64,000 bases of DNA, taken from assembly GCA_016713565.1 (NCBI GenBank), contig JADJOX010000002.1, positions 2,845 through 66,844 on the forward strand, written 5' to 3'. This stretch comes from Ignavibacteriota bacterium. Lineage in GTDB: Bacteria; Bacteroidota; Ignavibacteria; Ignavibacteriales; Melioribacteraceae. Each line of letters starts with the position of its first letter. Positions within the stretch are counted from its first letter, which is position 1. This document shows positions 16,619 through 63,408 of the stretch, piece by piece. The translations under genes and the position numbers were made by a program. The notes below the pieces were generated by a model that ran no database searches, was not told where the DNA came from, and saw only the letters and a program-made list of their open reading frames with translations.

Positions 16619-18531
16619 ATGCCATATAAAAACATAGCTCGTTTTACAAAACGTTTAAGAAACAGACATTTTTTCTTTATAGATTTATTTATTTGTCTAA
16701 TTGCGCCGTATTTAACAGTTTTTATGCGATTGGACGGTAATATAGATTATTCCAAATACGGAAGCGCTATTCTTTTTGCTACAGTATTATTCTCCGTGTT
16801 AAAATTAACAATATTTTATTTTTTCGATCTATATAGAAGATTCTGGGCAACTGCCAGTATTGATGAACTTGCCAGACTTATTTATATTGGGGTTAATACG
16901 GTTTTAATCGAATCGATTTTGTTTGTTATTTTAAGAACATTTCATTCAATACCGCTTCATATTTTACCGTTTTCATTTCCGTTTATTGAAAGTACAATCG
17001 TAATCTTATTTGTTTCCTCGTCCAGATTCAGTATAAGGTTTTTTGAAAGAATAGACGAGAGAAAACTTGCAATGGAATCATACGGTACGTACGTTTTGAT
17101 TATAGGCGCGGGCGGAGGCGGAGCATCGGTAGCTCAAGAAATGCAGAAAAACAATTATTTAAATATGACTCCTGTCGCATTTCTCGATGATGATCCTTCT
17201 AAACTTAAGTTAAGAATACGAGGCGTTCCGGTTGCAGGTAAAATAGATGAAATGGGCAAAATTGCGCGTAAATTTAGGATTAAAAAGGTTATTATAGCTA
17301 TTCCTTCGGCTTCCGGAAAACAATTAAGAAGAATTTTAGATATTGCAAGCGAAAATAATTTAGAGACATTAACCGTTCCCGGAATTAATGAAATTCTAGG
17401 AGGAAAGGTCGACATTAGTAAATTAAGAAAAATTCAAATTCATGATCTTCTGAGAAGACTGCCTATAAAAACGGATATTCAAAAAGTGGAACATCTGCTA
17501 AATGATAAAGTAATTTTATTAACCGGTGCGGGCGGTTCAATTGGAAGTGAATTGTGCAGGCAAATACTTAAATGTCATCCTAAAGAGTTAGTGATTTTAG
17601 GGCATGGCGAAAATTCTATTTTTGAAATTGAAGAAGAACTTAAATTTTTGATAAATCAAAATAAAAGTAAAACGAAAATAATTAGTCGAATTGCCGATAT
17701 TAAAGATGTAAATCGTCTTGAAGTAATTTTTAGAGAGTTTAAACCAAATGTTATTTTTCATGCAGCAGCGCATAAACATGTTCCGCTTATGGAAGAAAAT
17801 CCATCAGAAGCTGTTTCAAATAATTTACTCGGCACAAAAATTTAGTTAATATGTCAATTAAATTTGAAACACAGAATTTTATTTTAATTTCTTCCGACAA
17901 AGCGGTTAATTCCACAAATTTAATGGGTGTATCAAAGCGAGTAGCCGAAATGATTGTGCTTAAAGCGGCTGTTGACCATAATAAAAACTTTAAGGCTGTT
18001 CGTTTTGGCAATGTTTTAGGCAGCAGAGGAAGTGTAATTAAAACTTTTCAAAAACAGCTTGAAAGAGGTGGACCTTTAACTATCACGCATCCCGAAATTA
18101 CTAGATATTTTATGACGATACCGGAAGCGGTTCAGTTAGTGCTGCAGGCATCGGTTTTAGGTAATGGAGGAGAAATTTTTGTGCTAGATATGGGAGAACC
18201 TGTTAAAATATTGGATTTAGCAAAAGATGTAATTAGATTAGCCGGATTGGAAGAAGGTGTAGATGTTGATATTGAATTCACCGGATTAAGGCCAGGCGAA
18301 AAAATGTTCGAAGAATTATTTAAAGACGGTGAAGAATATATTAGGACGGAGCATGAAAAAATTATGTTTGCTAAAAATTCTAGCGAATTTATCCCTTCTG
18401 ATCTTGAGGCAAGACTTGACACTCTAATTTCTAATTGTAATAATTATTCTTCAGAAGAAATAATTAAATCCTTTTCCGAACTTGTGCCGGAATTTTCACA
18501 TCAAAGTTTAATTGCTGAACGAGTACTATAA
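16619..18531 (+). pseudogene. Membrane-anchored polysaccharide biosynthesis protein CapD / PglF / WbpM-type UDP-sugar 4,6-dehydratase, one frameshift near 17840
   Basis: N-terminal TM segments, two Rossmann motifs (IIGAGGGGASVA and LLTGAGGSIGSEL), then HAAAHKHVPLME. After an A5-run frame break it continues SSDKAVNSTNLMGVSKRVAE and RFGNVLGSRGSVI. Confidence 0.85.
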
Positions 18532-45653: not shown

Positions 45654-46756
45654 ATGGCAAATTTATCTATTAAAAATTTATTCAAATCTTACGATCAGAA
45701 AAACTACGCTGTTAACAATGTAAACATCGAAATTGCAAATGGCGAATTTGTCGTTTTGGTGGGTCCATCTGGATGCGGAAAATCAACCATTTTAAGAATG
45801 ATTGCGGGATTGGAAGATATTACAAAAGGTGAGATTTTTATTGATTCAAGACTTGTAAACAACGTATCGCCTAAGGATAGAGATATTGCAATGGTTTTTC
45901 AAAATTACGCGCTATATCCTCATATGAGTGTTTTTGAAAATATTTCATTTGGACTTAAACTAAGAAAATTCAGTAAGGAAGAAATAAATAAAAGGGTTAA
46001 CGACGCAAGTGAAATTTTGGGATTAACGGATCTGCTTGATAGAAAGCCAAAGCAATTATCCGGTGGTCAACGTCAAAGAGTTGCCCTTGGTAGAGCTATT
46101 GTTCGTAATCCAAAAGTATTTTTATTTGATGAACCGCTCAGTAATCTTGATGCCAAATTAAGAGTACAAATGAGGACTGAGATTTCAAAACTTCATAAAA
46201 AGTTAGGCACAACGATGATTTACGTAACTCATGATCAAACAGAAGCAATGACAATGGGTGACAAAATAGTGATTTTAAATAATGGGGAAGTACAGCAAAT
46301 TGATACTCCAATGAATTTATACACAAAACCAAAAAATAAATTTGTTGCGGGTTTTATTGGAAGTCCGGCGATGAATTTTTAGATGGAAAAATTGAAAAGG
46401 AAAATTCATTTTATTTTATTTCACAAAACAAAGAAATTAAATTTGATCTGACCAAGAAACAATCTGAGTACTTGGAAAAATACGTAGATCAAAATATAGT
46501 TATTGGAATCAGGCCTGAAGATTTTCATGTAATCGAAAATAAAGATGAAAATTACATTTCGGTGTTTTCAAAAATTGACCTTTTTGAACCGCTTGGAAAT
46601 GAAACTTATATTTATTTTTATATTGAGGGAAAACAAAATATTGCAAGAATTACGTCTTCAAATGATTTAAAGATCGGTTCCGAAATTGAATTTAAATTGG
46701 ATAAAAGTAAAATACATTTTTTCGACTCTGAAAATAATTCAGTTTTATTAAAATAA
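45654..46756 (+). pseudogene. ABC sugar transporter ATPase (MalK/UgpC/MsmX type), one frameshift near 46375
   Basis: Walker [11 protein letters not shown]-loop, signature LSGGQRQR, Walker [10 protein letters not shown] and H-loop YVTHDQ. The C-terminal regulatory domain (IGIRPEDF...) continues in another frame after SPAMNF at a T-run. Confidence 0.85.
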
Positions 46757-46770
46757 AAATTGAGAATTTT

Positions 46771-47917
46771 ATGAAGAATATTTTAATTTACATTTTACTT
46801 ACCGTATCATTTCAAAATTTTATGAAAGCACAGAATAACACACCAAATCCTAATGATACTTTAAGATCAATATTGGTTAATGACAATTCTTATGTTACAA
46901 TCAGCATCTATGCTCCCGAAGCAAAAAATGTTTCAATCGGGGGTGGAGATATTCCCGGAATTTATGAAAATGGAAAAATGAAAAGAAAAGAAAATGGTGT
47001 TTGGTCTTTAAATGTCGGACCAATTGCTCCGGGAGCATATAGATATAATTTTAATATTGACGGAGTAGTAGTAACGGACCCCAAAAATACCGAAACCAGC
47101 GAATCCAATATGAATATGTGGAGTTTGTTTTATGTAAGAGGTAAAGATTTTATGGATTGTAAAGATGTTCCGCATGGCGCGATTTCTGAAGTTAATTATT
47201 ATTCTATTACGCTGAATAAAAACCGAAGAATGCACATTTATACGCCGCCGGGATATGAAATTAGTAACATGGATTTTCCCGTTTTTTATCTTCTGCACGG
47301 AGCTTTTGATTGCGATGATTCTTGGACCACAGTTGGAAGAGCAGGTTTTATTATTGATAATTTAATTTTCGAAGGAAAGGTAAAACCTATGGTAATTGTT
47401 ATGCCGGCAGGACATACAAAACCTTTTCAATTTGGCGGAGCTGTACCCGAAAAAGATGAGTTTATTGAAGATTTCCTGAATGAAATAAAGCCGTATATTG
47501 AAAAAAATTTATAGAGTTATCAAAAACAGTCATAATACTGCAATTGCGGGGTTATCAATGGGCGGAGGTCATACATTAAATATCGCAATTCCAAATTTAG
47601 GCGATTATGGTTTTATTGGCGTTTTTAGCTCAGGTATTTTTGGGATTAACGGAGGAGATTCGTTTTTACCAAATATGGGTAACCAGTGGGAAAACAATAA
47701 CTTAAAGGTTTTAGATAATGCTAAACTTAAAGATAAAATTAAATTGATTTGGTTTGCGACCGGCAAAGACGACTTTCTTTTAGAAACTTCGCGTACAACT
47801 GTTAAAACACTTAGAAAACATAACTTTAATGTAATTTATAATGAAACCGAAGGCGGACATACTTGGACCAACTGGCGAGATTATTTATTCCAATTTTCTC
47901 AATTATTATTCAAGTAG
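46771..47917 (+). pseudogene. Secreted esterase of the 'putative esterase'/CE1-like family with N-terminal Ig-like module, one frameshift in an A7 run near 47503
   Basis: Signal peptide. GVWSLNVGPIAPGAYRYNFNIDG (E-set/CBM48-like), FPVFYLLHGAFDCDDSW, then (shift) NTAIAGLSMGG and GGHTWTNW. Confidence 0.7.
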
Positions 47918-48243: not shown

Positions 48244-49032
48244 ATGAAAAAATATTTATATCTACTTTTAACGCCTGAAGCGCTTATTGGTTCAATGCTC
48301 CCGCCTGATGAATTTGGTAATTACCTTGCAGTTGGAACGAAAAAAAGGAGCAGAGGACAGGCGATATTTTTTGAGGTTGACCCTGAATTAATGGACGGTA
48401 AATTCCCAAAAGAACGATGGGAAAATCAATGCGTTCCACATTCTGATGGAACACCTAAACGATCGCTTTATTTGTCAATTCATCGCGTTTTGGAAAACAT
48501 TCCGCTAAAAGCTTTAATGGATTTATACTTAGCTACTGATGACGGCAGAGTTTTAGGATTGAGTAAAAACGATTATAATCCTAATTTAGATACTGACAAA
48601 CTGCATTTATATCAGCAGCTTTGTCCGGTTACGCCAAGAATTGCAAGCAGTTTAAATCCGACAGAATTCATGAAAACTATTACTGATACAACACGGCCCG
48701 TATCAGTACCAAAATTAGTTTTTGTTGAATTACTTCTTAATGATCTTGCGAATGATCCTAAAAACGCGTCAATTGGAAATTTACCATATTCAAATATTGA
48801 CCATTTGAGAGATTGCCTCATAGGATTACAAAAAAATCCGGATAAACCGACAAAAACGGTTATCAGATTTTTCCAAAGTGACCTGCTTTACCGAACATGT
48901 AAAAACGGGTTTTTTGTAGGCAATAAGGATGAAATGTTGTACTATCATTTCCCAAGCTTGGAAGAATTGGAAGATAAACAGCATGCGTGGCTTCGTTCAG
49001 CTTTAACAATTGGTTTCAGAAGTACTATTTAA
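48244..49032 (+). CDS. Hypothetical protein (262 aa), no family recognised
   Basis: Intact ORF with normal amino-acid composition and AAAGGTG 5 nt upstream of the ATG. It ends 36 nt before the pyrophosphatase ATG. Confidence 0.5.
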   Translation: MKKYLYLLLTPEALIGSMLPPDEFGNYLAVGTKKRSRGQAIFFEVDPELMDGKFPKERWENQCVPHSDGTPKRSLYLSIHRVLENIPLKALMDLYLATDDGRVLGLSKNDYNPNLDTDKLHLYQQLCPVTPRIASSLNPTEFMKTITDTTRPVSVPKLVFVELLLNDLANDPKNASIGNLPYSNIDHLRDCLIGLQKNPDKPTKTVIRFFQSDLLYRTCKNGFFVGNKDEMLYYHFPSLEELEDKQHAWLRSALTIGFRSTI

Positions 49033-55596: not shown

Positions 55597-56031
55597 ATGT
55601 TAAAAAATATTCCTCCGATTATTAGTCCGGATCTGATTAAAATTTTAAGCGAAATGGGACATGGCGATGAAATTGTTATTGCTGACGGAAATTTTCCGGC
55701 TGCATCAAAAGCAAAAAGACTTATTAGGATGGATGGTCATAACGCTTGCGAAATTTTAACCGCTATTTTGAAATTTTTCCCTTTAGATAAATATGTTTCG
55801 AATCCTGTCAGTTTAATGCAAGTTGTAAAAGGCGACACTGTAGTTCCGACAATTTGGAATGAATTCGAGATCATTATAAAAGAAAGCGGAGAATATTTTA
55901 ATGGTTTTGAATACTTGGAAAAGCCTGAATTTTATGAAAGATCTGAAAAAGCTTACGCTGTTATTGCATCCAGCGAAAAAGCACTTTATGCAAATATTAT
56001 TCTCAAAAAAGGCGTAATTGTTATTCAATAA
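55597..56031 (+). CDS. fucU: L-fucose mutarotase (RbsD/FucU family)
   Basis: 144 aa. MLKNIPPIISPDLIKILSEMGHGDEIVIADGNFPA...FYERSEKAYAVI...YANIILKKGV is colinear with E. coli FucU. Confidence 0.9.
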   Translation: MLKNIPPIISPDLIKILSEMGHGDEIVIADGNFPAASKAKRLIRMDGHNACEILTAILKFFPLDKYVSNPVSLMQVVKGDTVVPTIWNEFEIIIKESGEYFNGFEYLEKPEFYERSEKAYAVIASSEKALYANIILKKGVIVIQ

Positions 56032-56109: not shown

Positions 56110-56802
56110 ATGAACGTGACGAGAGAAGAATTTATTAAAATTATTGTTGATAAAGTTTTGGCAAAGCTTGCCGAAAACAAAGAATTTTTGCAGAAAGATA
56201 TCTCAGATGAAAACGGAATTTGGAAATTTGATCAGACTTTGTTTACATTTTCCGATGCTCAAAATATTAAAAGTAAGCATTGTAATAAAGTAATTTTTTC
56301 GCCCAAAACTATTATTACACCTTTGGCTCATGATTTTCTAATAGGGGAAAACATTCATATAGAAAAATTAACTGTATCATCGAATTTAATGCATGAAGCA
56401 ATATCGGCAGAAACTTCCAAAAAAATTGCGATTCTCTGTAATGAAAACGATATAGTTTATAAGAATAAAACCAAAGAGATATTGCTTAAATTGGGTATTG
56501 AATGTGAATGGAAAAATCCTAAAAATAATTATTTCTATGAATTTGAAAATTGTTTATTGGATTTGGCTAAGAAAACTGAATCTGGAAAATATCATTCGGC
56601 AATAATTATAAATAATGAAGCTTTTAAACTTCGTAAAATTTTACAGAATAATAATTCTCTTAACGGTCAAATTTGCTGGGAAATTAATAGCAGTAAAGTT
56701 TGCAATATTAAGTCGAAATATTTATTTATAAATAGTGCCTTGTTAGGTTTTAACATGTTGGAAAGTAAAATTGATAGCTGGATTAAATTAAACCAAAATT
56801 AA
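56110..56802 (+). CDS. Hypothetical 230-aa protein with an N-terminal encapsulation-peptide-like helix; candidate microcompartment-associated protein
   Basis: Intact ORF in the operon. The N-terminus is TREEFIKIIVDKVLAKLAE. A middle segment reads KVIFSPKTIITPLAHDFLIGENIHI. By eye, the C-terminal half (KKIAILCNEND...GIECEW...YHSAIIINNEAF...LGFNMLESKIDSWI) is colinear with the RpiB/LacAB fold but lacks the CGTG-type catalytic motif. Confidence 0.5.
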   Translation: MNVTREEFIKIIVDKVLAKLAENKEFLQKDISDENGIWKFDQTLFTFSDAQNIKSKHCNKVIFSPKTIITPLAHDFLIGENIHIEKLTVSSNLMHEAISAETSKKIAILCNENDIVYKNKTKEILLKLGIECEWKNPKNNYFYEFENCLLDLAKKTESGKYHSAIIINNEAFKLRKILQNNNSLNGQICWEINSSKVCNIKSKYLFINSALLGFNMLESKIDSWIKLNQN

Positions 56803-56820: not shown

Positions 56821-58236
56821 TTGTCGAATATTGACAGAATACATATAAAAAAATTAGTTGCAGAAGTCATAAACGAATTAGAAATAAGCGGTAATTATAA
56901 TTTAAAAAACTCGTCTGATGGAATTTATGAACATGTCGATGACGCCGTATATCAATCCAAAATAGCGCAAAAAAAATGGGTTAAAGTATCAACGGATGTA
57001 AAGAAAAAGATAATTTCCGAATTAAGAAAAACTATGCATGCATTTGCCGAAGATTTTTCTAAGAGAGCCCATGAAGAAACCGGAATGGGCAGAGTTCAAG
57101 ATAAAATTGCAAAACATCATAATGCAGCCGATTCAACTCCCGGAATGGAAGATTTAGAAACAAGATCATGGACAGGTTCCAAAGGTACCGTTATTGAAGA
57201 AAGAGCGCCATACGGAGTAATTGCCGGAATCACTCCTTCAACACATCCAATTCCGGTATTATTAAATAGTATAATAATTACAATCGCAGGCGGAAACAGT
57301 GTTATTTTTAGTGTTCATCCAGCAGCAAAAAAAGTATCGGCTTACGCAATACCGATTTTTCACAAAGTAATTGTTGAAAATGGCGGACCTGAAAATTTAA
57401 TTACTATGATCAAAGAACCGACTTTGGAAAATGTTAACAGATTATTCAATCACAACGATATTGATCTGATAGTTGCTACAGGCGGACCAGCAGTAGTTGA
57501 GGCCGCTTTCAAAGCGGGGAAAAAAGTTGTTGCGGCTGGACCGGGAAATCCACCAGTACTGGTTGATAGATCCGCAAATTTGAATAATGCCGCAAAGAGT
57601 TTGATAACCGGAGCTTCTTTCGATAACAATATTTTATGTATTGCGGAAAAGGAAACATTTGTTGTAAAAGACGTTTTTGATGATTTTGTTCAAGCTATGA
57701 AAAATAACGGCGCGGTTTGTTTAAATTCTGCTCAAATTGAAATGTTGACCAAAAAAGCAATTGTTCAAAATGATAAAGGACATTATCTGGGAACGCGTGA
57801 ATTTATTGGTAAAAATGCAAGTGTCTTGGCTTCCGCGTGCGGCATAAATTTATCTGAGAATGTAAGATTATTGTTTGGCGAAGTAAATGAAAATCATCCG
57901 TTTGTTGTTGCGGAACAAATGATGCCGTTTATGCCGATTGTTAAAGTCAATTCTTTTGAAGACGGAATGATAAAGTGCAAAATAGCCGAACACGGTTTTG
58001 GACATACAGCGGTTATTCATTCAAATGATATTCAGAATATTACAAAATTTACTCAAGAAATGGACACAAGTATTGTTATTGTTAACGGTCCTTCTTTAGC
58101 GGGAAATGGACCAAATGCAGGTGAAGGCTATTTCTCGCACACAATTGCCAGTCCTACCGGTGAAGGAGTTTGTACTCCCAAAGATTTTACAAGAGTTAGA
58201 AGAATAGCAATTTCAAATGCATTAAAAATTGTATAA
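56821..58236 (+). CDS. CoA-acylating aldehyde dehydrogenase (PduP/EutE family), TTG start, N-terminal encapsulation-peptide-like helix
   Basis: GMGRVQDKIAKH, ITPSTHPIPVLLNSIIITIAGGNSVIFSVHPAAKK, GGPAVV, AAGPGNPPVLVD, the FDNNILCIAEKE catalytic-Cys motif and TIASPTGEGV are colinear with E. coli EutE. The N-terminus is DRIHIKKLVAEVINEL. Confidence 0.9.
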   Translation: MSNIDRIHIKKLVAEVINELEISGNYNLKNSSDGIYEHVDDAVYQSKIAQKKWVKVSTDVKKKIISELRKTMHAFAEDFSKRAHEETGMGRVQDKIAKHHNAADSTPGMEDLETRSWTGSKGTVIEERAPYGVIAGITPSTHPIPVLLNSIIITIAGGNSVIFSVHPAAKKVSAYAIPIFHKVIVENGGPENLITMIKEPTLENVNRLFNHNDIDLIVATGGPAVVEAAFKAGKKVVAAGPGNPPVLVDRSANLNNAAKSLITGASFDNNILCIAEKETFVVKDVFDDFVQAMKNNGAVCLNSAQIEMLTKKAIVQNDKGHYLGTREFIGKNASVLASACGINLSENVRLLFGEVNENHPFVVAEQMMPFMPIVKVNSFEDGMIKCKIAEHGFGHTAVIHSNDIQNITKFTQEMDTSIVIVNGPSLAGNGPNAGEGYFSHTIASPTGEGVCTPKDFTRVRRIAISNALKIV

Positions 58237-58259: not shown

Positions 58260-58538
58260 ATGAAATTAGAAGCATTAGGCATGATTGAAACAAAAGGATT
58301 AGTTGGCGCAATAGAAGCAGCGGACGCCATGGTTAAAGCCGCAAATGTTAGTTTATTGGGAAAAGAAACAATTGGCGGCGGTTACGTAACCGTAATGGTT
58401 AGAGGAGATGTAGGCGCAGTAAAAGCTGCTACAGATGCTGGCGCTTCAGCCGCTCAAAGAGTTGGAGAACTTGTTTCAGTCCATGTAATACCAAGACCAC
58501 ATTCTGATGTAGAAACAATTTTGCCAAACACTAAATAG
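58260..58538 (+). CDS. Bacterial microcompartment shell protein, BMC-H (PduA/EutM-like hexamer subunit)
   Basis: 92 aa. [57 protein letters not shown]...VHVIPRPH is the canonical single BMC (PF00936-type) domain. Confidence 0.95.
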
Positions 58539-58560: not shown

Positions 58561-59367
58561 ATGAGTTATAATTTAATTACCCTGAAAAATCAAATTGTTG
58601 AAGTGGGTAAGAGGATGTATGACAGAGGTTATGTTGCGTCAAATGATGGAAATATCAGTGCAAAAGTTGATAATGAAAGGGTGGTTATAACTCCAACAGG
58701 AGTTAGTAAAGGTTATTTAACTCCCGACATGATGGTAGTTGTAGATATGAATGGAAAAGTAATAAATGGAAACGGAAAAGCTTCGTCTGAAGTTTTTATG
58801 CATTTACAAGTTTATAGAGACAGACCTGATGTTGGAAGCGTATGTCATTCACATCCTCCTTATGCTACAGGTTATGCCGTTGCGGGAATTCCACTTGATA
58901 AATGCGTACTTCCTGAAGTGATTATTGCTCTAGGAAATATTCCAATTGTTGCTTATGGTACACCCGGAACTGATGAATTTTATAAACCGGTTGTTCCGTT
59001 GCTTAAAGACTATGACGCGTTTTTATTGGCAAATCATGGTGCGTTGACAGTAGGCAAAGATGTTTTAAGCGCCTATCATAAAATGGAAACCTTAGAACAT
59101 TTTGCGCATATCGCTTTTGTAGCTCAACAGGTTGGAAGCATTAATACTTTAAATAAAGATCAAGTTAAAAAGTTGACTGATCAAAGAGAAAAATATGGAG
59201 TTAGAACAACTGCCGGATGCGTAACTTGCGAAACCGAAGGTACTTGTGATATTCACGACGGAAAAAGCAATTCATCTAAATTTGAATTTAATAGTTTGTC
59301 TTTAAGTGAAAAAGATCAACTTATAAATGAAATTACTGACGCGATTCTGAAAAGATTAAATAAGTAG
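58561..59367 (+). CDS. Class II aldolase (L-fuculose-/rhamnulose-1-phosphate aldolase family) with a C-terminal extension of about 55 aa
   Basis: NDGNISAK, VITPTGVSKG, SSEVFMHLQVY, VCHSHPPYAT and LANHGALTVG. The extension reads TTAGCVTCETEGTCDIHDG...SEKDQLINEITDAILKRLNK. Confidence 0.85.
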   Translation: MSYNLITLKNQIVEVGKRMYDRGYVASNDGNISAKVDNERVVITPTGVSKGYLTPDMMVVVDMNGKVINGNGKASSEVFMHLQVYRDRPDVGSVCHSHPPYATGYAVAGIPLDKCVLPEVIIALGNIPIVAYGTPGTDEFYKPVVPLLKDYDAFLLANHGALTVGKDVLSAYHKMETLEHFAHIAFVAQQVGSINTLNKDQVKKLTDQREKYGVRTTAGCVTCETEGTCDIHDGKSNSSKFEFNSLSLSEKDQLINEITDAILKRLNK

Positions 59368-59375
59368 GAAAATCT

Positions 59376-60569
59376 ATGAAAATTGTTGTTTGCAATGTGG
59401 GTTCTACGAGTTTAAAATTCCAACTTCTTCAAATGGAAAATGAACAGCAGCTTGCAAAAGGTTATATTGAAAGAGTAGGTGAAGAAAATGCAATTGTAAA
59501 TTTTTGGATTGGCGAACAGAAAGTATTCCAGAAAAATTTGAATATACCTTCACTTAAAGACGCTGTCAAATTATCAATTGAATTTTTATCTGATGAAAAA
59601 AATAATTTAATAAAAGATTTCAGTGAAATTGACGGAATTGGATTTAAAACAATTCAAGCCGGCGATAAAAACGGCTCGGTAATTTTGGATGATGAAGTTT
59701 TAGCCGCAATGAAAAATTATTCGTCATTGGCTCCCGCGCATAATCCTCCGTATTTAGAAGCCATTTATATGTTTAAAGAATTGCTGCCGAATACAAATTT
59801 AGTTGGTGTATTTGAACCCGGATTTCATGTCGATATTCCCGATTACGCAAAAGTATACGGAGTTCCCTACGAATGGATTGAAAAATACGGCGTTGTAAAA
59901 TATGGTTATCATGGAGCTTCGCATAGATTTGTAACATTTGAGACGGTTAAAGTTTTAAATCTTGATCCCAAAAATCATAAAGTAATTTCGGTTCATTTAG
60001 GCGGATCCTCATCGCTTTGTGCGTTTAAAAATGGAATATCTATAGATACTTCAATGGGATTTACTCCGCAGACCGGTTTGATCCAAGGAACAAGAATTGG
60101 AGATATAGATCCGTTCGTATTTCCTTATATAATGGAAAAGAAAAAAATTACATTAGATGAAGCTTTAAAAGAATGTTCAAAAAACGGCGGACTTAAAGGG
60201 CTTTCCGGAATTTCGGCTGATATGAGAGAAATTAAAGACGCGGTAGAAAAAAATGATCCTAAAGCAATTCTTGCCAGAAATAAATTTATTTACGATATTA
60301 AAAGATATATTGGCGAGTATATTATTTTAATGGAAGGAATTGACGCCATTACTTTTACAGGCGGAATTGGTCAAAAAGATTGGCAGCTTCGAGAGGAAGT
60401 TTTAAATTCATTGCAATTTTTAGGATTTAAGCTAAATCAAGAATCAAACAAAGAAAATAAAACAACTATAAGTGCCGATGATTCAAAATTTTATTCATTA
60501 GTTTTGGAAACAAATGAAGAATTAGTAGTTGCGAGAGAAACACAAAAAGTAGTTTTACAAAAATCATAA
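59376..60569 (+). CDS. ackA: Acetate (acyl-phosphate) kinase
   Basis: 397 aa. MKIVVCNVGSTSLKFQL, APAHNPP, YGYHGASH, HLGGSSSLCAFKNG, DTSMGFTP and FTGGIG. Confidence 0.9.
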   Translation: MKIVVCNVGSTSLKFQLLQMENEQQLAKGYIERVGEENAIVNFWIGEQKVFQKNLNIPSLKDAVKLSIEFLSDEKNNLIKDFSEIDGIGFKTIQAGDKNGSVILDDEVLAAMKNYSSLAPAHNPPYLEAIYMFKELLPNTNLVGVFEPGFHVDIPDYAKVYGVPYEWIEKYGVVKYGYHGASHRFVTFETVKVLNLDPKNHKVISVHLGGSSSLCAFKNGISIDTSMGFTPQTGLIQGTRIGDIDPFVFPYIMEKKKITLDEALKECSKNGGLKGLSGISADMREIKDAVEKNDPKAILARNKFIYDIKRYIGEYIILMEGIDAITFTGGIGQKDWQLREEVLNSLQFLGFKLNQESNKENKTTISADDSKFYSLVLETNEELVVARETQKVVLQKS

Positions 60570-60602: not shown

Positions 60603-61331
60603 ATGCAAGTAGCTTTATTTATTCCTTGTTTAAATGAGCACATTTACCCGAGCGCGGCAATTTCAATGGTAAAAGTTTTAAACTATTTTAAAGTTAATAC
60701 AATTTACGTTGATGATCAAACTTGCTGCGGACAACCGGCTTTCAATTCAGGATACCAAAGTGAAATTATTCCGCTCGCTGAGAGATTCATTAAATTATTT
60801 GCTGATTATGATTATGTTATTGCTCCTTCAGGTTCATGCGTAGCCATGGTAAAAAATCATTACAAAGAAATTCCAATTGATAACTCGCTTAACGAAAAAT
60901 ACAATAGCCTCAGAAATAAAATTTATGAATTCACGGAATTTTTAATAAAAGTTTTGAACATCACTTCAATTGATGCTCAGTTTAAACATAAAGTTACTTT
61001 TCACGATTCATGCCACGCGTTAAGGGAACTCAAGATTTCAAGTGAACCGAGAAAGATATTAAATATGATTAAAGATTTGGAATTAGTTGAAATGTTGGAT
61101 TCCGACGTATGCTGCGGATTTGGCGGAACTTTTTCGTATAAATATGAAGATGTTTCCGTTGCAATGGTTGAAAGAAAATGCAGTAATATCCTTAATACAA
61201 AAGCAGAATATTGTGTAGGTCTTGATTCAAGCTGTTTAATGAATATTGACGGTTATGTTAAAAAAAATAAACTAAACGTTAAAGTTATTCACATAGCAGA
61301 TCTATTGTGTCAAAGTTTAGGAATTTTATAA
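60603..61331 (+). CDS. lutA: Lactate utilization protein A ((Fe-S)-binding, two CCG domains)
   Basis: 242 aa. VALFIPCL, TCCGQPAFNSGY, FHDSCHALR and VCCGFGGTF. Confidence 0.85.
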   Translation: MQVALFIPCLNEHIYPSAAISMVKVLNYFKVNTIYVDDQTCCGQPAFNSGYQSEIIPLAERFIKLFADYDYVIAPSGSCVAMVKNHYKEIPIDNSLNEKYNSLRNKIYEFTEFLIKVLNITSIDAQFKHKVTFHDSCHALRELKISSEPRKILNMIKDLELVEMLDSDVCCGFGGTFSYKYEDVSVAMVERKCSNILNTKAEYCVGLDSSCLMNIDGYVKKNKLNVKVIHIADLLCQSLGIL

Positions 61332-61334
61332 ATA

Positions 61335-62738
61335 TTGTCTACAGATAAAATAAATATTAAAGATCATATAATTGAAGCGCTTAGCGATGCCGATTTAAGA
61401 AAGGCGGTATATAAAGCAACCGCGTCCACTTCTGTTAGCAGATTAAACACGACTGAGGCAATTCCTTATTGGGAAGAATGCCGAGTTAAAACACATTGTA
61501 TTAAAAAAGATGTTATTGAAAATCTTGATAAATATTTAGAGCTCTTTGAAAAAAACGCGAAGAATAACGGAATTAACATTCATTGGGCAATAGACGGAAA
61601 TGATGCTAAAAATATTCTCAGCGAAATAGCGAAAAAAAATAATGTTAAAACTATTGTAAAATCAAAATCATTAACGACAGAAGAAATTCACCTAAATGAA
61701 TTTTTAATCGGTAATAATATTGATACCGTTGAAACAGATCTTGGTGAATATATTGTTCAGCTTAATGATCAAGTACCCTCACATTTGGTTGCACCTGCTT
61801 TGCATCTAAGCAGAACGGACATTGGAAAATTATTTAAGGACAAACTTAACGTTCCTTTTACCGATGTACCGGAAGAACTTTTACTTATTGCCAGAAAAAA
61901 ATTAAGAGAGAAATTCCTCAGCGCGGAAATGAGTATTACAGGAGTGAACTTCGCGTTTGCCGAAAACGGATCATTTTGTGTGGTTGAAAATGAAGCTAAC
62001 GCTCATTTGAGTTTAAGTTTGCCGCAAGTTCATGTCGCCGTAATGGGAATTGAAAAATTGCTGCCCAGCATTGATGAACTTCCGTATTTCTTAAAACTTC
62101 TTGCGCCAAGCGCTACCGGACAAAAATCATCATCTTATGTAAATTTTATAGGCGGACCAAGTTTGCAAAAGTATAACGAAGGTCCTAAAGAAGTTCACGT
62201 AATTTTATTAGATAACGGAAGATCAAAAATTCTTGCTGATCCTAAATTAAGAGAGACATTATATTGCATAAGATGCGGAGCTTGTTTAAATGTATGTCCG
62301 GTTTATCAGCAAATTGGCGGTCATGCTTATGATTGGACTTACATGGGTCCAATAGGAATTACACTTATTCCCCAGTATTTAGGTGAAATTGAAGGAAAAG
62401 ACGCGCCGTTTTTATCGAGTCTTTGCGGCGCTTGCGCCGATGTTTGTCCAGTTAAAATTAAACTCCCTCAACATATTTTGGAATTAAGAAAAAATGTCGT
62501 TCAAAAAAATAAATCTAAAATTTTTGAAAAATTTGCGATGAAGACTTGGATCGCGGTTTCAACTCATCCAAAACTTTACAGATTATTTAGTTGGAAAATT
62601 AAAAAATTGCAGAGCTTTATACCCGTTGAATATCTCAAATTACCGGGATATCATAAAAAGAGAAGTTTCCCCGGAATTGATAAAAAGGGATTTAGAGAAC
62701 AATATTATCAAATGAAAAAAAATAATAATGAGCAGTAG
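61335..62738 (+). CDS. lutB: Lactate utilization protein B (4Fe-4S ferredoxin-type subunit), TTG start
   Basis: 467 aa with a LUD-type N-terminal domain. CIRCGACLNVCPVY and CGACADVCPVKI are the two Cys clusters. Confidence 0.85.
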   Translation: MSTDKINIKDHIIEALSDADLRKAVYKATASTSVSRLNTTEAIPYWEECRVKTHCIKKDVIENLDKYLELFEKNAKNNGINIHWAIDGNDAKNILSEIAKKNNVKTIVKSKSLTTEEIHLNEFLIGNNIDTVETDLGEYIVQLNDQVPSHLVAPALHLSRTDIGKLFKDKLNVPFTDVPEELLLIARKKLREKFLSAEMSITGVNFAFAENGSFCVVENEANAHLSLSLPQVHVAVMGIEKLLPSIDELPYFLKLLAPSATGQKSSSYVNFIGGPSLQKYNEGPKEVHVILLDNGRSKILADPKLRETLYCIRCGACLNVCPVYQQIGGHAYDWTYMGPIGITLIPQYLGEIEGKDAPFLSSLCGACADVCPVKIKLPQHILELRKNVVQKNKSKIFEKFAMKTWIAVSTHPKLYRLFSWKIKKLQSFIPVEYLKLPGYHKKRSFPGIDKKGFREQYYQMKKNNNEQ

Positions 62739-63408
62739 AGAAAAAATATTATCGCAAGTTAAATCCGCGTTGCGGACAAAATCTCATGAAGAAGAAAGCA
62801 AAATCACTATTGATGAACTGCTGAAATCAAAAATTAATTTAACTGTTAAAACTAATAAAAATGATTTAATCTCTCAATTTCAAACTGAAATAAAAAAAGT
62901 AAATGGAGATTCTATTGTTGTTAAAAGTAATTTGGAAGCATCAAATAAAATAAATGAAATATTAATTGAAGCTAAAGAAAATCAAATCGCAATAACCGAT
63001 CAAAATATTTGCACTGAAGTAAGATTAAATATACAAAAAGGTAATTCCAATCTTCAATTTATAATCGCTAATAACTTGGATTCTAAAGAACGTAAAGAAA
63101 AAATCAGTCAATTGAAAACGGCAATTGTGCAAGCCGATTATGCGGTTTCTGAAATTGCACAATTAGTATTTTTATACGACAATTCAAAAACCAGCTATCC
63201 GCATTTTCTTTGCGATTTTGTAATTGCGTTGGTTAAAGTTAGTAATTTAATGCCTAATCAATTTACACTATTTGAAAAAATTGACAAAGTAAAAGCATTA
63301 AATATGGTACTTGTCACCGGACCAAGCCGCACCGCGGATATTGAAAAAGTTTTGGTACTTGGAGCGCATGGTCCAAGAAAATTGATTGTAATTCTAATTG
63401 ATGAATAA
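62728..63408 (+). CDS. lutC: Lactate utilization protein C (LUD domain)
   Basis: 226 aa. It overlaps lutB by 11 nt. The size and position fit the third lut gene, and it carries ...AIVQADYAVSEIAQLV...VTGPSRTADIEKVLVLGAHGP. Confidence 0.7.
   Translation: MSSREKILSQVKSALRTKSHEEESKITIDELLKSKINLTVKTNKNDLISQFQTEIKKVNGDSIVVKSNLEASNKINEILIEAKENQIAITDQNICTEVRLNIQKGNSNLQFIIANNLDSKERKEKISQLKTAIVQADYAVSEIAQLVFLYDNSKTSYPHFLCDFVIALVKVSNLMPNQFTLFEKIDKVKALNMVLVTGPSRTADIEKVLVLGAHGPRKLIVILIDE

Follow-up and report, generated by a model that had tools for sequence, protein, structure and literature searches.

A 64,000-nucleotide stretch of DNA from an Ignavibacteriota bacterium (contig JADJOX010000002.1), referred to here in its whole length as the window, contains on its + strand an open reading frame (ORF) at 56110–56802 whose 230-residue product, read from an ATG start, is probably a non-catalytic adaptor or organiser between the cargo and the shell of a fucose-type bacterial microcompartment (BMC) rather than an enzyme. 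The protein is composed of a putative targeting helix, a linker, a module resembling the N-terminus of EutQ, a second linker and a domain with the fold of ribose-5-phosphate isomerase B (RpiB) that has lost its catalytic residues. The ORF lies directly upstream of an aldehyde dehydrogenase (AldDH) and a shell gene, as an initial annotation made from the sequence alone had described it, and the peptides quoted there are exact. For catabolic microcompartments the central open question concerns the attachment of cargo to the shell, and adaptors between the two have so far been solved singly (CcmN/CcmM, CsoS2 and, in 2025, EutQ). The module described below joins two separate findings, the inactive ribose-5-phosphate isomerase (RPI) of sugar-phosphate-utilising (SPU) organelles and the N-terminal region by which EutQ binds the shell, and extends both to the class II aldolase (fucose/rhamnose-type) organelles, for which no RpiB-like component has been described. 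It also allows the annotation "hypothetical protein" to be corrected for a conserved member of class II aldolase BMC loci.

The domain layout was predicted with AlphaFold2, run on the full protein with a six-sequence alignment (mean predicted local distance difference test, pLDDT, 77.7) and on residues 1–100 with 12 sequences, the two runs giving the same elements. A helix at residues 5–22 (or to 26), a small α/β domain at 37–86 and a further α/β domain at 106–229 are predicted, separated by linkers of low confidence. We accordingly divide the protein into a helix resembling an encapsulation peptide (EP) at residues 5–22 (REEFIKIIVDKVLAKLAE; 56122–56175, pLDDT 69–85), linker 1 at residues 23–35 (56176–56214, pLDDT < 50 at residues 25–29), the middle module at residues 36–87 (56215–56370), linker 2 at residues 88–104 (56371–56421, pLDDT < 50 at residues 89–101) and the RpiB/LacAB-fold domain at residues 105–230 (56422–56799). 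The boundaries of sequence conservation coincide with those of the predicted domains. Identity of the helix to that of the window protein is 25–88% in the eight closest relatives, and 25–67% when P0002, which is 89% identical overall, is set aside (loci and proteins used for comparison are cited by their L and P numbers). Without P0002, the close relatives are 23–52% identical in the module and 40–67% in the C-terminal domain, compared with 0–29% in linker 1, which also varies in length, and 6–29% in linker 2; the changes are concentrated in the linkers. Many relatives carry a CC or CGC motif in linker 2 (ESCCYKE, NCCEN, SSCGCRK) where the window protein has SS, possibly a metal, redox or lipid site that it has lost.

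The middle module is a β-α-β-α-β unit with the signature TIITPLAxD (strands at residues 37–40, 60–63 and 83–86, helices at 47–55 and 71–79; pLDDT 81–93 in the run on residues 1–100). The segment KVIFSPKTIITPLAHDFLIGENIHI, which the initial annotation had picked out without assigning it, is the core of this unit and the best-conserved element of the family: in 32 aligned sequences T70 never varies, and conservation of P71, A73 and D75 reaches at least 90%. Residues 9–85 of the window protein match the last ~60 model positions of NCBIfam TIGR02536 ("ethanolamine utilization protein") with E 7.6e-6, a match below the whole-protein cutoff of that model, the module being the only matching part; the match to the C-terminus of PduM is weak (E 0.05). 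All 32 of the relatives match the C-terminal end of TIGR02536, while three match PduM and two match EutQ. Profile comparison with hhalign aligned the module with eight TIGR02536-like (eut_hyp-like) proteins at 99% probability (E 2.3e-18) and with residues 2–52 of EutQ as annotated in the E. coli K-12 genome, at 86.8% probability (E 4.2e-6). A hidden Markov model (HMM) built for the module matches the N-terminus of E. coli EutQ at E 2e-4. On this evidence the module appears homologous to EutQ 2–52 and to the C-termini of PduM and TIGR02536, and is a putative shell-docking element.

The module HMM also matches clostridial ORFs that resemble TIGR02536 and lie directly upstream of BMC-P genes. Two such ORFs, in a Clostridiaceae metagenome-assembled genome (MAG) (L018, 9321–9974) and in Clostridium ragsdalei P11 (L019, 9256–9972), carry the module at the C-terminus and are followed by BMC-P as the next gene; weaker module-like matches were seen at L019 6987–7766, L018 10280–10558 and L018 7036–7833. 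Free-standing proteins of 83–93 residues that consist of an EP helix and the module exist as well, and the two that we looked up both adjoin shell genes. At L021 2443–3231 a 93-residue gene of this type stands 58 nt upstream of a separate 149-residue PF02502 gene, between AldDH and BMC-P. Here the EP–module–RpiB fusion occurs naturally in split form, with the module as a separable unit.

The C-terminal half had been read by eye as a degenerate RpiB/LacAB fold without the catalytic Cys/His motifs, and the predicted structure bears this out. Foldseek placed ~127 residues on RpiB/LacAB structures of the PDB (E 4.9e-5 to 1e-3, target template-modelling (TM) score 0.6–0.79); all eight matches at E ≤ 0.001 were RpiB structures, including 2vvr_B (E 4.9e-5), 5ifz (target TM 0.79), 3s5p, 3he8 and 1o1x. 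On its own the window protein matched none of the Pfam/NCBIfam RpiB models (PF02502, TIGR00689, TIGR01120), and direct Pfam and PDB searches with it gave noise only (DUF1247, E 0.065; RQT4, E 0.028). A profile of its narrow clade, searched against 1.84 billion representative proteins, found 64 relatives with E ≤ 1e-3; for 26 of these E was ≤ 1e-10. PF02502 is matched independently by 24 of the 32 aligned full-length relatives, and the 32-sequence family profile matches PDB RpiB chains at E 8.6e-20. The protein had been called unassigned, with no counterpart among BMC enzymes; this has to be revised, since it is a divergent relative of the SPU RPI. The further statement that it is not PduL holds, there being no PF06130 match and no tblastn match, and that identity is ruled out.

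The catalytic positions were compared by aligning RpiB from E. coli and from C. thermocellum with the family sequences (E. coli numbering). The window protein has Asn/Glu in place of Asp9/His10, Asn in place of Cys66, Asn/Glu in place of Gly67/Thr68, neither His nor Asn at His99/Asn100 and Lys in place of Asn103. It stops ~six residues past a conserved Trp (W224), where the SPU-type relatives run on into a GGRHxxR tail, which we take, going by E. coli RpiB, to be the C-terminal phosphate-binding helix with its Arg/His site. By alignment, then, every known catalytic or phosphate-binding residue of RpiB is missing. An ordinary housekeeping RpiB adjoining the locus by chance is hardly credible and is ruled out as an identity: the fold is that of RpiB, but all catalytic residues are replaced, there is no direct match to a Pfam/NCBIfam RpiB model, a BMC-specific N-terminal extension of ~100 residues is present and the protein occurs in BMC loci only.

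The RPI of SPU organelles (pfam02502) provides the best-studied relative. It carries an EP, has Asp in place of Cys66 in all cases, keeps His99 and has negligible isomerase activity; it is tetrameric and binds the signature aldolase, DERA, in a ~1:1 complex, and a packaging role has been proposed for it (Dwyer et al. 2024, PMC11585597). Relatives with exactly this SPU signature (P0032, P0033, P0045, P0052) share both EP and module with the window protein. Five metagenome loci (L025, L026, L034, L038, L100) encode an N-terminally extended RPI directly upstream of a DeoC homolog, and in three of the five (L025, L034, L100) the module HMM matches the extension. In the alignment the family makes up a degeneration series that begins with the SPU type, with Asp66 and His99 kept, continues with relatives in loci of the MIC4 type, which mostly have Asp66 and have lost D9, H10, H99 and the tail, and ends with the Ignavibacteria clade of the window, where position 66 is Asn or Ser and other residues have changed as well.

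The family appears confined to BMC loci. Every relative on a contig long enough for its neighbours to be seen adjoins shell genes and none was found outside such a locus, in keeping with the BMC association originally proposed; the contig of P0032, one of the SPU-type relatives, is too short for its neighbours to be seen. A word-indexed search of 5.8 billion proteins gave only five homologs (53–99% identity), those with names coming from Ignavibacteriae/Melioribacteraceae MAGs and annotated as hypothetical. Three NCBI assemblies, as well as several metagenome contigs, keep the order FucU–ORF–AldDH–BMC-H–aldolase, and the operon order is shared by at least four Ignavibacteria/Melioribacteraceae genomes. 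Assemblies with a window-type locus include GCA_016708125.1 (contig JADJGF010000001.1), GCA_016716225.1 (contig JADJWT010000001.1) and GCA_049292875.1. The longer contigs continue with AckA, sometimes FucI, and then LutABC and an FGGY kinase, and upstream in those relatives are the same H+-PPase, CBM9 and GH38 genes. The ORF is 58, 53, 38 and 36% identical to its counterparts in L001, L002, L014 and L010, respectively, compared with 85, 84, 79 and 70% for AldDH, 95, 96, 97 and 90% for BMC-H, 87, 89, 85 and 80% for the aldolase and 83, 81, 77 and 73% for AckA. Against the more distant locus L004 the ORF is ~20% and its neighbours are 59–76% identical. It thus changes about twice as fast as its neighbours and is the fastest gene of the operon, a rate more in keeping with a binding or scaffolding role than with an enzyme.

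The N-terminal helix has the layout of an encapsulation peptide, a terminal helix (residues 5–22) set off by a poorly conserved linker of low pLDDT. The hh-xx-hh-xx-hh pattern is present (FI-KI-IV-DK-VL-AK-L), V16 is at least 90% conserved in the 32 relatives and the helix is retained across the family down to ~20% identity.

The operon to which the ORF belongs runs from FucU to LutC, all on the same strand with spacers of 8–78 bp. Its first gene encodes a FucU/RbsD mutarotase (55597–56031; PF05025, E 3.3e-42). The ORF follows, and 18 bp downstream of its end starts AldDH (56821–58236; PF00171), which is 61% identical to the AldDH of the MIC4-type locus L004. Next come the BMC-H shell hexamer protein (58260–58538; PF00936, E 1.2e-30), the only shell gene of the window, the signature enzyme, a class II (fuculose-phosphate-type) aldolase (58561–59367; PF00596, E 1.5e-51 over residues 11–185 of 268), acetate kinase, AckA (59376–60569; PF00871, E 7e-111), and the lactate utilisation proteins LutA, LutB and LutC (60603–63408; PF02754, PF02589, PF11870). 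In a consensus scan of the operon region no + strand terminator was found between the genes, the sole + strand candidate lying inside lutB, and promoter-like sites were not in excess over shuffled sequence. The translations of AldDH and of the aldolase show EP-like helices at the N- and C-terminus, respectively. The aldolase extends ~80 residues past its Pfam domain, and its residues 219–268 (59215–59367) contain a Cys-rich stretch, GCVTCETEGTCDIH, ahead of the terminal EP-like helix, EKDQLINEITDAILKRLNK. No tblastn match to BMC-P, BMC-T, PduS or PduL was found anywhere in the 64 kb.

What is established for organelles of the PVM type (microcompartments of Planctomycetes and of Verrucomicrobia) implies the following pathway: fucose is converted to fuculose-1-phosphate, which the aldolase cleaves to dihydroxyacetone phosphate (DHAP) and lactaldehyde; AldDH yields lactyl-CoA and from it comes lactyl-phosphate, a kinase forms lactate and ATP, and LutABC leads to pyruvate. 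The window locus is most likely a pared-down BMC of the MIC4 type that processes fucose and lactaldehyde. An L-fucose isomerase gene lies between AckA and LutA/LutB in L001 and L010 but not in the window or in L002; the arrangement of the fucose genes thus differs among close relatives.

Loci with related proteins, or with the same core genes, fall into four types. Type A (L004–L007, L012, L017 and the contig of P0010) has the order DeoR, three BMC-P genes, the RpiB-like gene, a PduS-like gene, BMC-T, PduL, AldDH, BMC-H, class II aldolase and AckA, and matches MIC4; a phosphotransacylase (PTAC), the BMC-P triplet, and PduS with BMC-T are all present in L004, L006, L012 and L017. Type B, from Ignavibacteria (L015, L016), has three BMC-P genes, PduL, AldDH, BMC-H, aldolase and AckA, with no RpiB-like gene and no module within ±10 kb. 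Type C, from Ignavibacteriales (L010, L014), has FucU, three BMC-P genes, the degenerate RpiB-like gene, AldDH, BMC-H, aldolase, AckA and LutABC, and no PduL, PduS or BMC-T. Type D (the window, L001–L003, L023 and L024) is like type C minus the pentamer triplet. Between the BMC-P triplet and AldDH, L015 and L016 carry PduL, and L010 and L014 carry the degenerate RpiB-like gene in the same slot, both genes being present in L004, L006 and L017. Types B and C would follow from type A by two alternative deletions.

The missing shell genes are plausibly located elsewhere in the genome, because shell-only FRAG1 loci (a BMC-P triplet, two BMC-H genes and a PduS/T pair) are most prominent in Ignavibacteria and both MIC4 and FRAG1 are recorded for Melioribacter roseus (Sutter et al. 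2021). A genome scan with BMC-P matched other Ignavibacteria genomes and not those bearing a window-type locus. In a separate BMC-P search for pentamer genes in the latter, none of the best 120 of 1190 matches lay on their 4.50 or 4.31 Mb contigs.

The remainder of the window, which has an overall G+C content of ~30%, is devoted largely to polysaccharides. Degradation and uptake are represented by GH94, GH2, two glycoamylases, GH38, CBM9, an ABC sugar transporter and LacI. Positions 1–29000 have a lower G+C content (24–30%) and many short ORFs without a Pfam match among genes for capsule and polysaccharide synthesis, which at the 5′ end include a CapD-like protein, epimerases, a GT1 glycosyltransferase and two Wzi-like proteins. 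Three genes appear split: a MalK-like ABC ATPase (45654–46382 and 46472–46756) and a CBM48-esterase (46771–47514 and 47498–47917), both undivided in L001 and L002 (367 and 381 residues), and a CapD-like Polysacc_synt_2 gene (16619–17845 and 17851–18531), whose Pfam domain is cut at profile positions 109/115. These are frameshifts, from assembly indels or recent pseudogenization. L001, L002 and L023 have, at the same place upstream of the H+-pyrophosphatase, a counterpart of a 262-residue ORF without a Pfam match (48244–49032).

Bringing these observations together, we propose that the EP helix would place the protein among the EP-bearing cargo, beside the N-terminus of AldDH and the C-terminus of the aldolase, that the module would dock on the BMC-H layer in the manner of helices H1/H2 of EutQ, and that the RpiB domain would serve as an oligomerising, partner-binding body, which would make the adaptor multivalent. 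The same domain may also bind the signature aldolase, as DERA is bound by the SPU RPI. Shell binding by the module is suggested by its homology to EutQ, and oligomerisation of the RpiB-like domain by the behaviour of the RpiB family and the SPU RPI tetramer; binding of the aldolase is conceivable by analogy, the class II aldolase being unrelated to DERA. Of the three roles offered in the initial annotation (a new cargo enzyme, a non-catalytic scaffold nucleating the core, and a substitute for the missing PTAC), the scaffold fits best, because of the loss of catalytic residues, the roughly twofold rate of change, the EutQ-like module and the inactive, aldolase-binding relative in SPU organelles.

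Several points weigh against this proposal. Every step of shell and cargo binding in it is reached indirectly. The link between module and EutQ stands at the level of profiles (the 86.8% probability given above), with no solved structural relative; Foldseek of the N-terminal 100 residues gave no convincing PDB match, the best being Rpb5 (E 2.6e-3, TM 0.2–0.38). The sequence homology of the window protein to RpiB would be transitive, through intermediates and the predicted fold: its narrow-clade profile found no RpiB in the PDB and, when aligned by hhalign with two RpiB sequences, gave the correct full-length register at 2.5% probability. As to the helix, its resemblance to known targeting peptides was part of the original description, and the predicted helix and its conservation agree with this, but the pattern itself does not exceed chance. 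An Eisenberg hydrophobic moment of 0.33 was reached by 410 of 500 shuffles and is not significant, and hh..hh..hh..h is found at 5 of the 54 ORF N-termini of this AT-rich window; the same amphipathicity test is also non-significant for the EPs of AldDH and the aldolase. The polar residues that are invariant in the clade (YKNKTKE, CWE and KSK in the RpiB-like domain) could belong to a ligand or catalytic site rather than to an interface alone. A closed organelle in this host is, moreover, not established: BMC-P, BMC-T, PduS and PTAC are absent from the locus, and a tblastn search with PduL of L004 had zero matches in the 64 kb.

Among the alternatives, the one that survives best, though we consider it unlikely, is a ligand-binding pseudoenzyme that would bind a sugar phosphate (fuculose-1-phosphate or DHAP) and act as a channelling or regulatory partner of the aldolase rather than in a mainly structural role. 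The wider family does keep pocket residues (D at position 66, CWD and N103), the gene is always in sugar-phosphate aldolase loci and the SPU RPI binds its aldolase (PMC11585597). On the other hand, D9/H10 are lost and the GGRHxxR tail, the putative phosphate-binding helix, is gone in the whole degenerate clade, and in the clade of the window D66 and N103 are replaced too, while formation of the SPU RPI–DERA complex left the kinetics of the aldolase unchanged (PMC11585597).

Replacement of the missing PTAC by a neo-functionalised enzyme, which would convert lactyl-CoA and phosphate to lactyl-phosphate for AckA and so recycle CoA inside the organelle, is a still less probable explanation. The window and the loci of types C and D keep AldDH and AckA with no PduL in the 64 kb or in ±10 kb flanks, the domain has invariant polar and basic residues specific to the clade, and it is the alternation of PduL with the RpiB-like gene in a single Ignavibacteria slot (L015 and L016 versus L010 and L014) that keeps the idea alive at all. 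It is weakened by the fuller MIC4-type loci, in which the RpiB-like gene and PduL occur together, so that two alternative deletions explain the alternation. Its rate of change is also about twice that of the true enzymes alongside it, it has no recognisable catalytic motif, and the activity could come from a housekeeping Pta or from a PduL encoded elsewhere in the genome. We know of no acyltransferase with the RpiB fold.

Very improbable, finally, is a decaying relic of the ancestral locus without function in the reduced one. No gene of the operon evolves faster than the ORF, pentamers, PduS, BMC-T and PTAC are gone from the locus, and the gene is missing entirely from the Ignavibacteria loci L015 and L016. 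However, it is intact, with equal length and the same domain boundaries, in at least six lineages (36–99% identity), its changes fall mainly in the linkers, 97 positions are invariant between the window protein and its five closest homologs, and the gene order around it is kept in four genomes.

The adaptor role that we favour leads to a broader idea, which we put forward tentatively and regard as doubtful in its full extent: that the module is a portable, general shell-docking domain of metabolosomes, used in EutQ, PduM, TIGR02536 proteins, SPU RPI, the pseudo-RpiB proteins and the EP-plus-module mini-proteins, and that the Ignavibacteria lineage has a stripped-down fucose organelle or scaffold made of one BMC-H and the adaptor, the operon having no pentamers, PduS/BMC-T or PduL. 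A general docking domain of this kind would give a compact, transferable tag for engineering and a sequence marker for organiser proteins in many loci of unknown function.

The closest match to the locus as a whole is MIC4, recorded for KSB1 and Ignavibacteria including M. roseus (Sutter et al. 2021). MIC4 and the window share AldDH with an EP, BMC-H, the pfam00596 aldolase and the pfam00871 kinase (Sutter et al. 2021, Supplementary Data 2), with 59–76% identity to L004; PTAC, the BMC-P triplet and the PduS/PduT pair, which define MIC4, are not in the 64-kb window, and the window locus is set in a fucose operon with FucU and LutABC. The catalog text on MIC4 makes no mention of an RpiB-like protein (Sutter et al. 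2021), and in the literature searched we found no description of the family in class II aldolase (MIC4/fucose) loci. Compared with catalytic RpiB/LacAB enzymes, the window protein has the same fold and register over ~125 residues and differs in its extra N-terminal region of ~100 residues and in having no catalytic or phosphate-binding residues; we found no description of such a complete loss of the RpiB catalytic apparatus in this family.

An adaptor of this kind is already known in its two halves, as the EP-bearing inactive RPI that acts as a packaging factor and as the shell-binding region of EutQ. In Salmonella EutQ, residues 9–41 (H1/H2) bind the shell and residues 62–99 bind the encapsulation peptides of cargo, residues 1–99 suffice for targeting of GFP to the organelle, and binding takes place at the hexamer/trimer interface of the shell, as shown for Salmonella EutQ only (Yang et al. 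2025, PMC12487888). EutQ residues 2–52 align at profile level with the window module over ~50 residues of the form KxLITxxD…IITPxAxE/D. EutQ has no N-terminal EP; it carries the EP-binding helices H3/H4 together with a cupin acetate-kinase domain, whereas the module of the window protein lies between an EP and the dead RpiB domain. TIGR02536 proteins and PduM have the same module at the C-terminus and an EP-like helix at the N-terminus and adjoin shell genes (L018, L019), with other body domains and another domain order, the PduM match being weak.

The SPU RPI differs from the window protein in keeping D9/H10/H99, the GGRHxxR tail and a PF02502 score, none of which the window protein has. Where the SPU type is recognised by Asp66 with His99, the window protein has Asn66 and has lost His99, and most type A proteins have Asp66 with His99 also lost. 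The partner aldolase differs as well, being class II (PF00596) at the window and DERA (pfam01791) in SPU, and adjacency to DeoC is seen only for the SPU-type relatives. Pfam02502 has been called unique to SPU and its spacer an unstructured linker (PMC11585597), and recognition of this RPI linker as a EutQ/PduM/TIGR02536 module is not described in the literature that we searched. The two proteins nevertheless share an N-terminal EP helix, a spacer, an RpiB-fold domain that has lost Cys66 and a gene position beside the signature aldolase and AldDH, and in the SPU-type RPIs adjoining DeoC the spacer holds the same TPLA module as that of the window protein.

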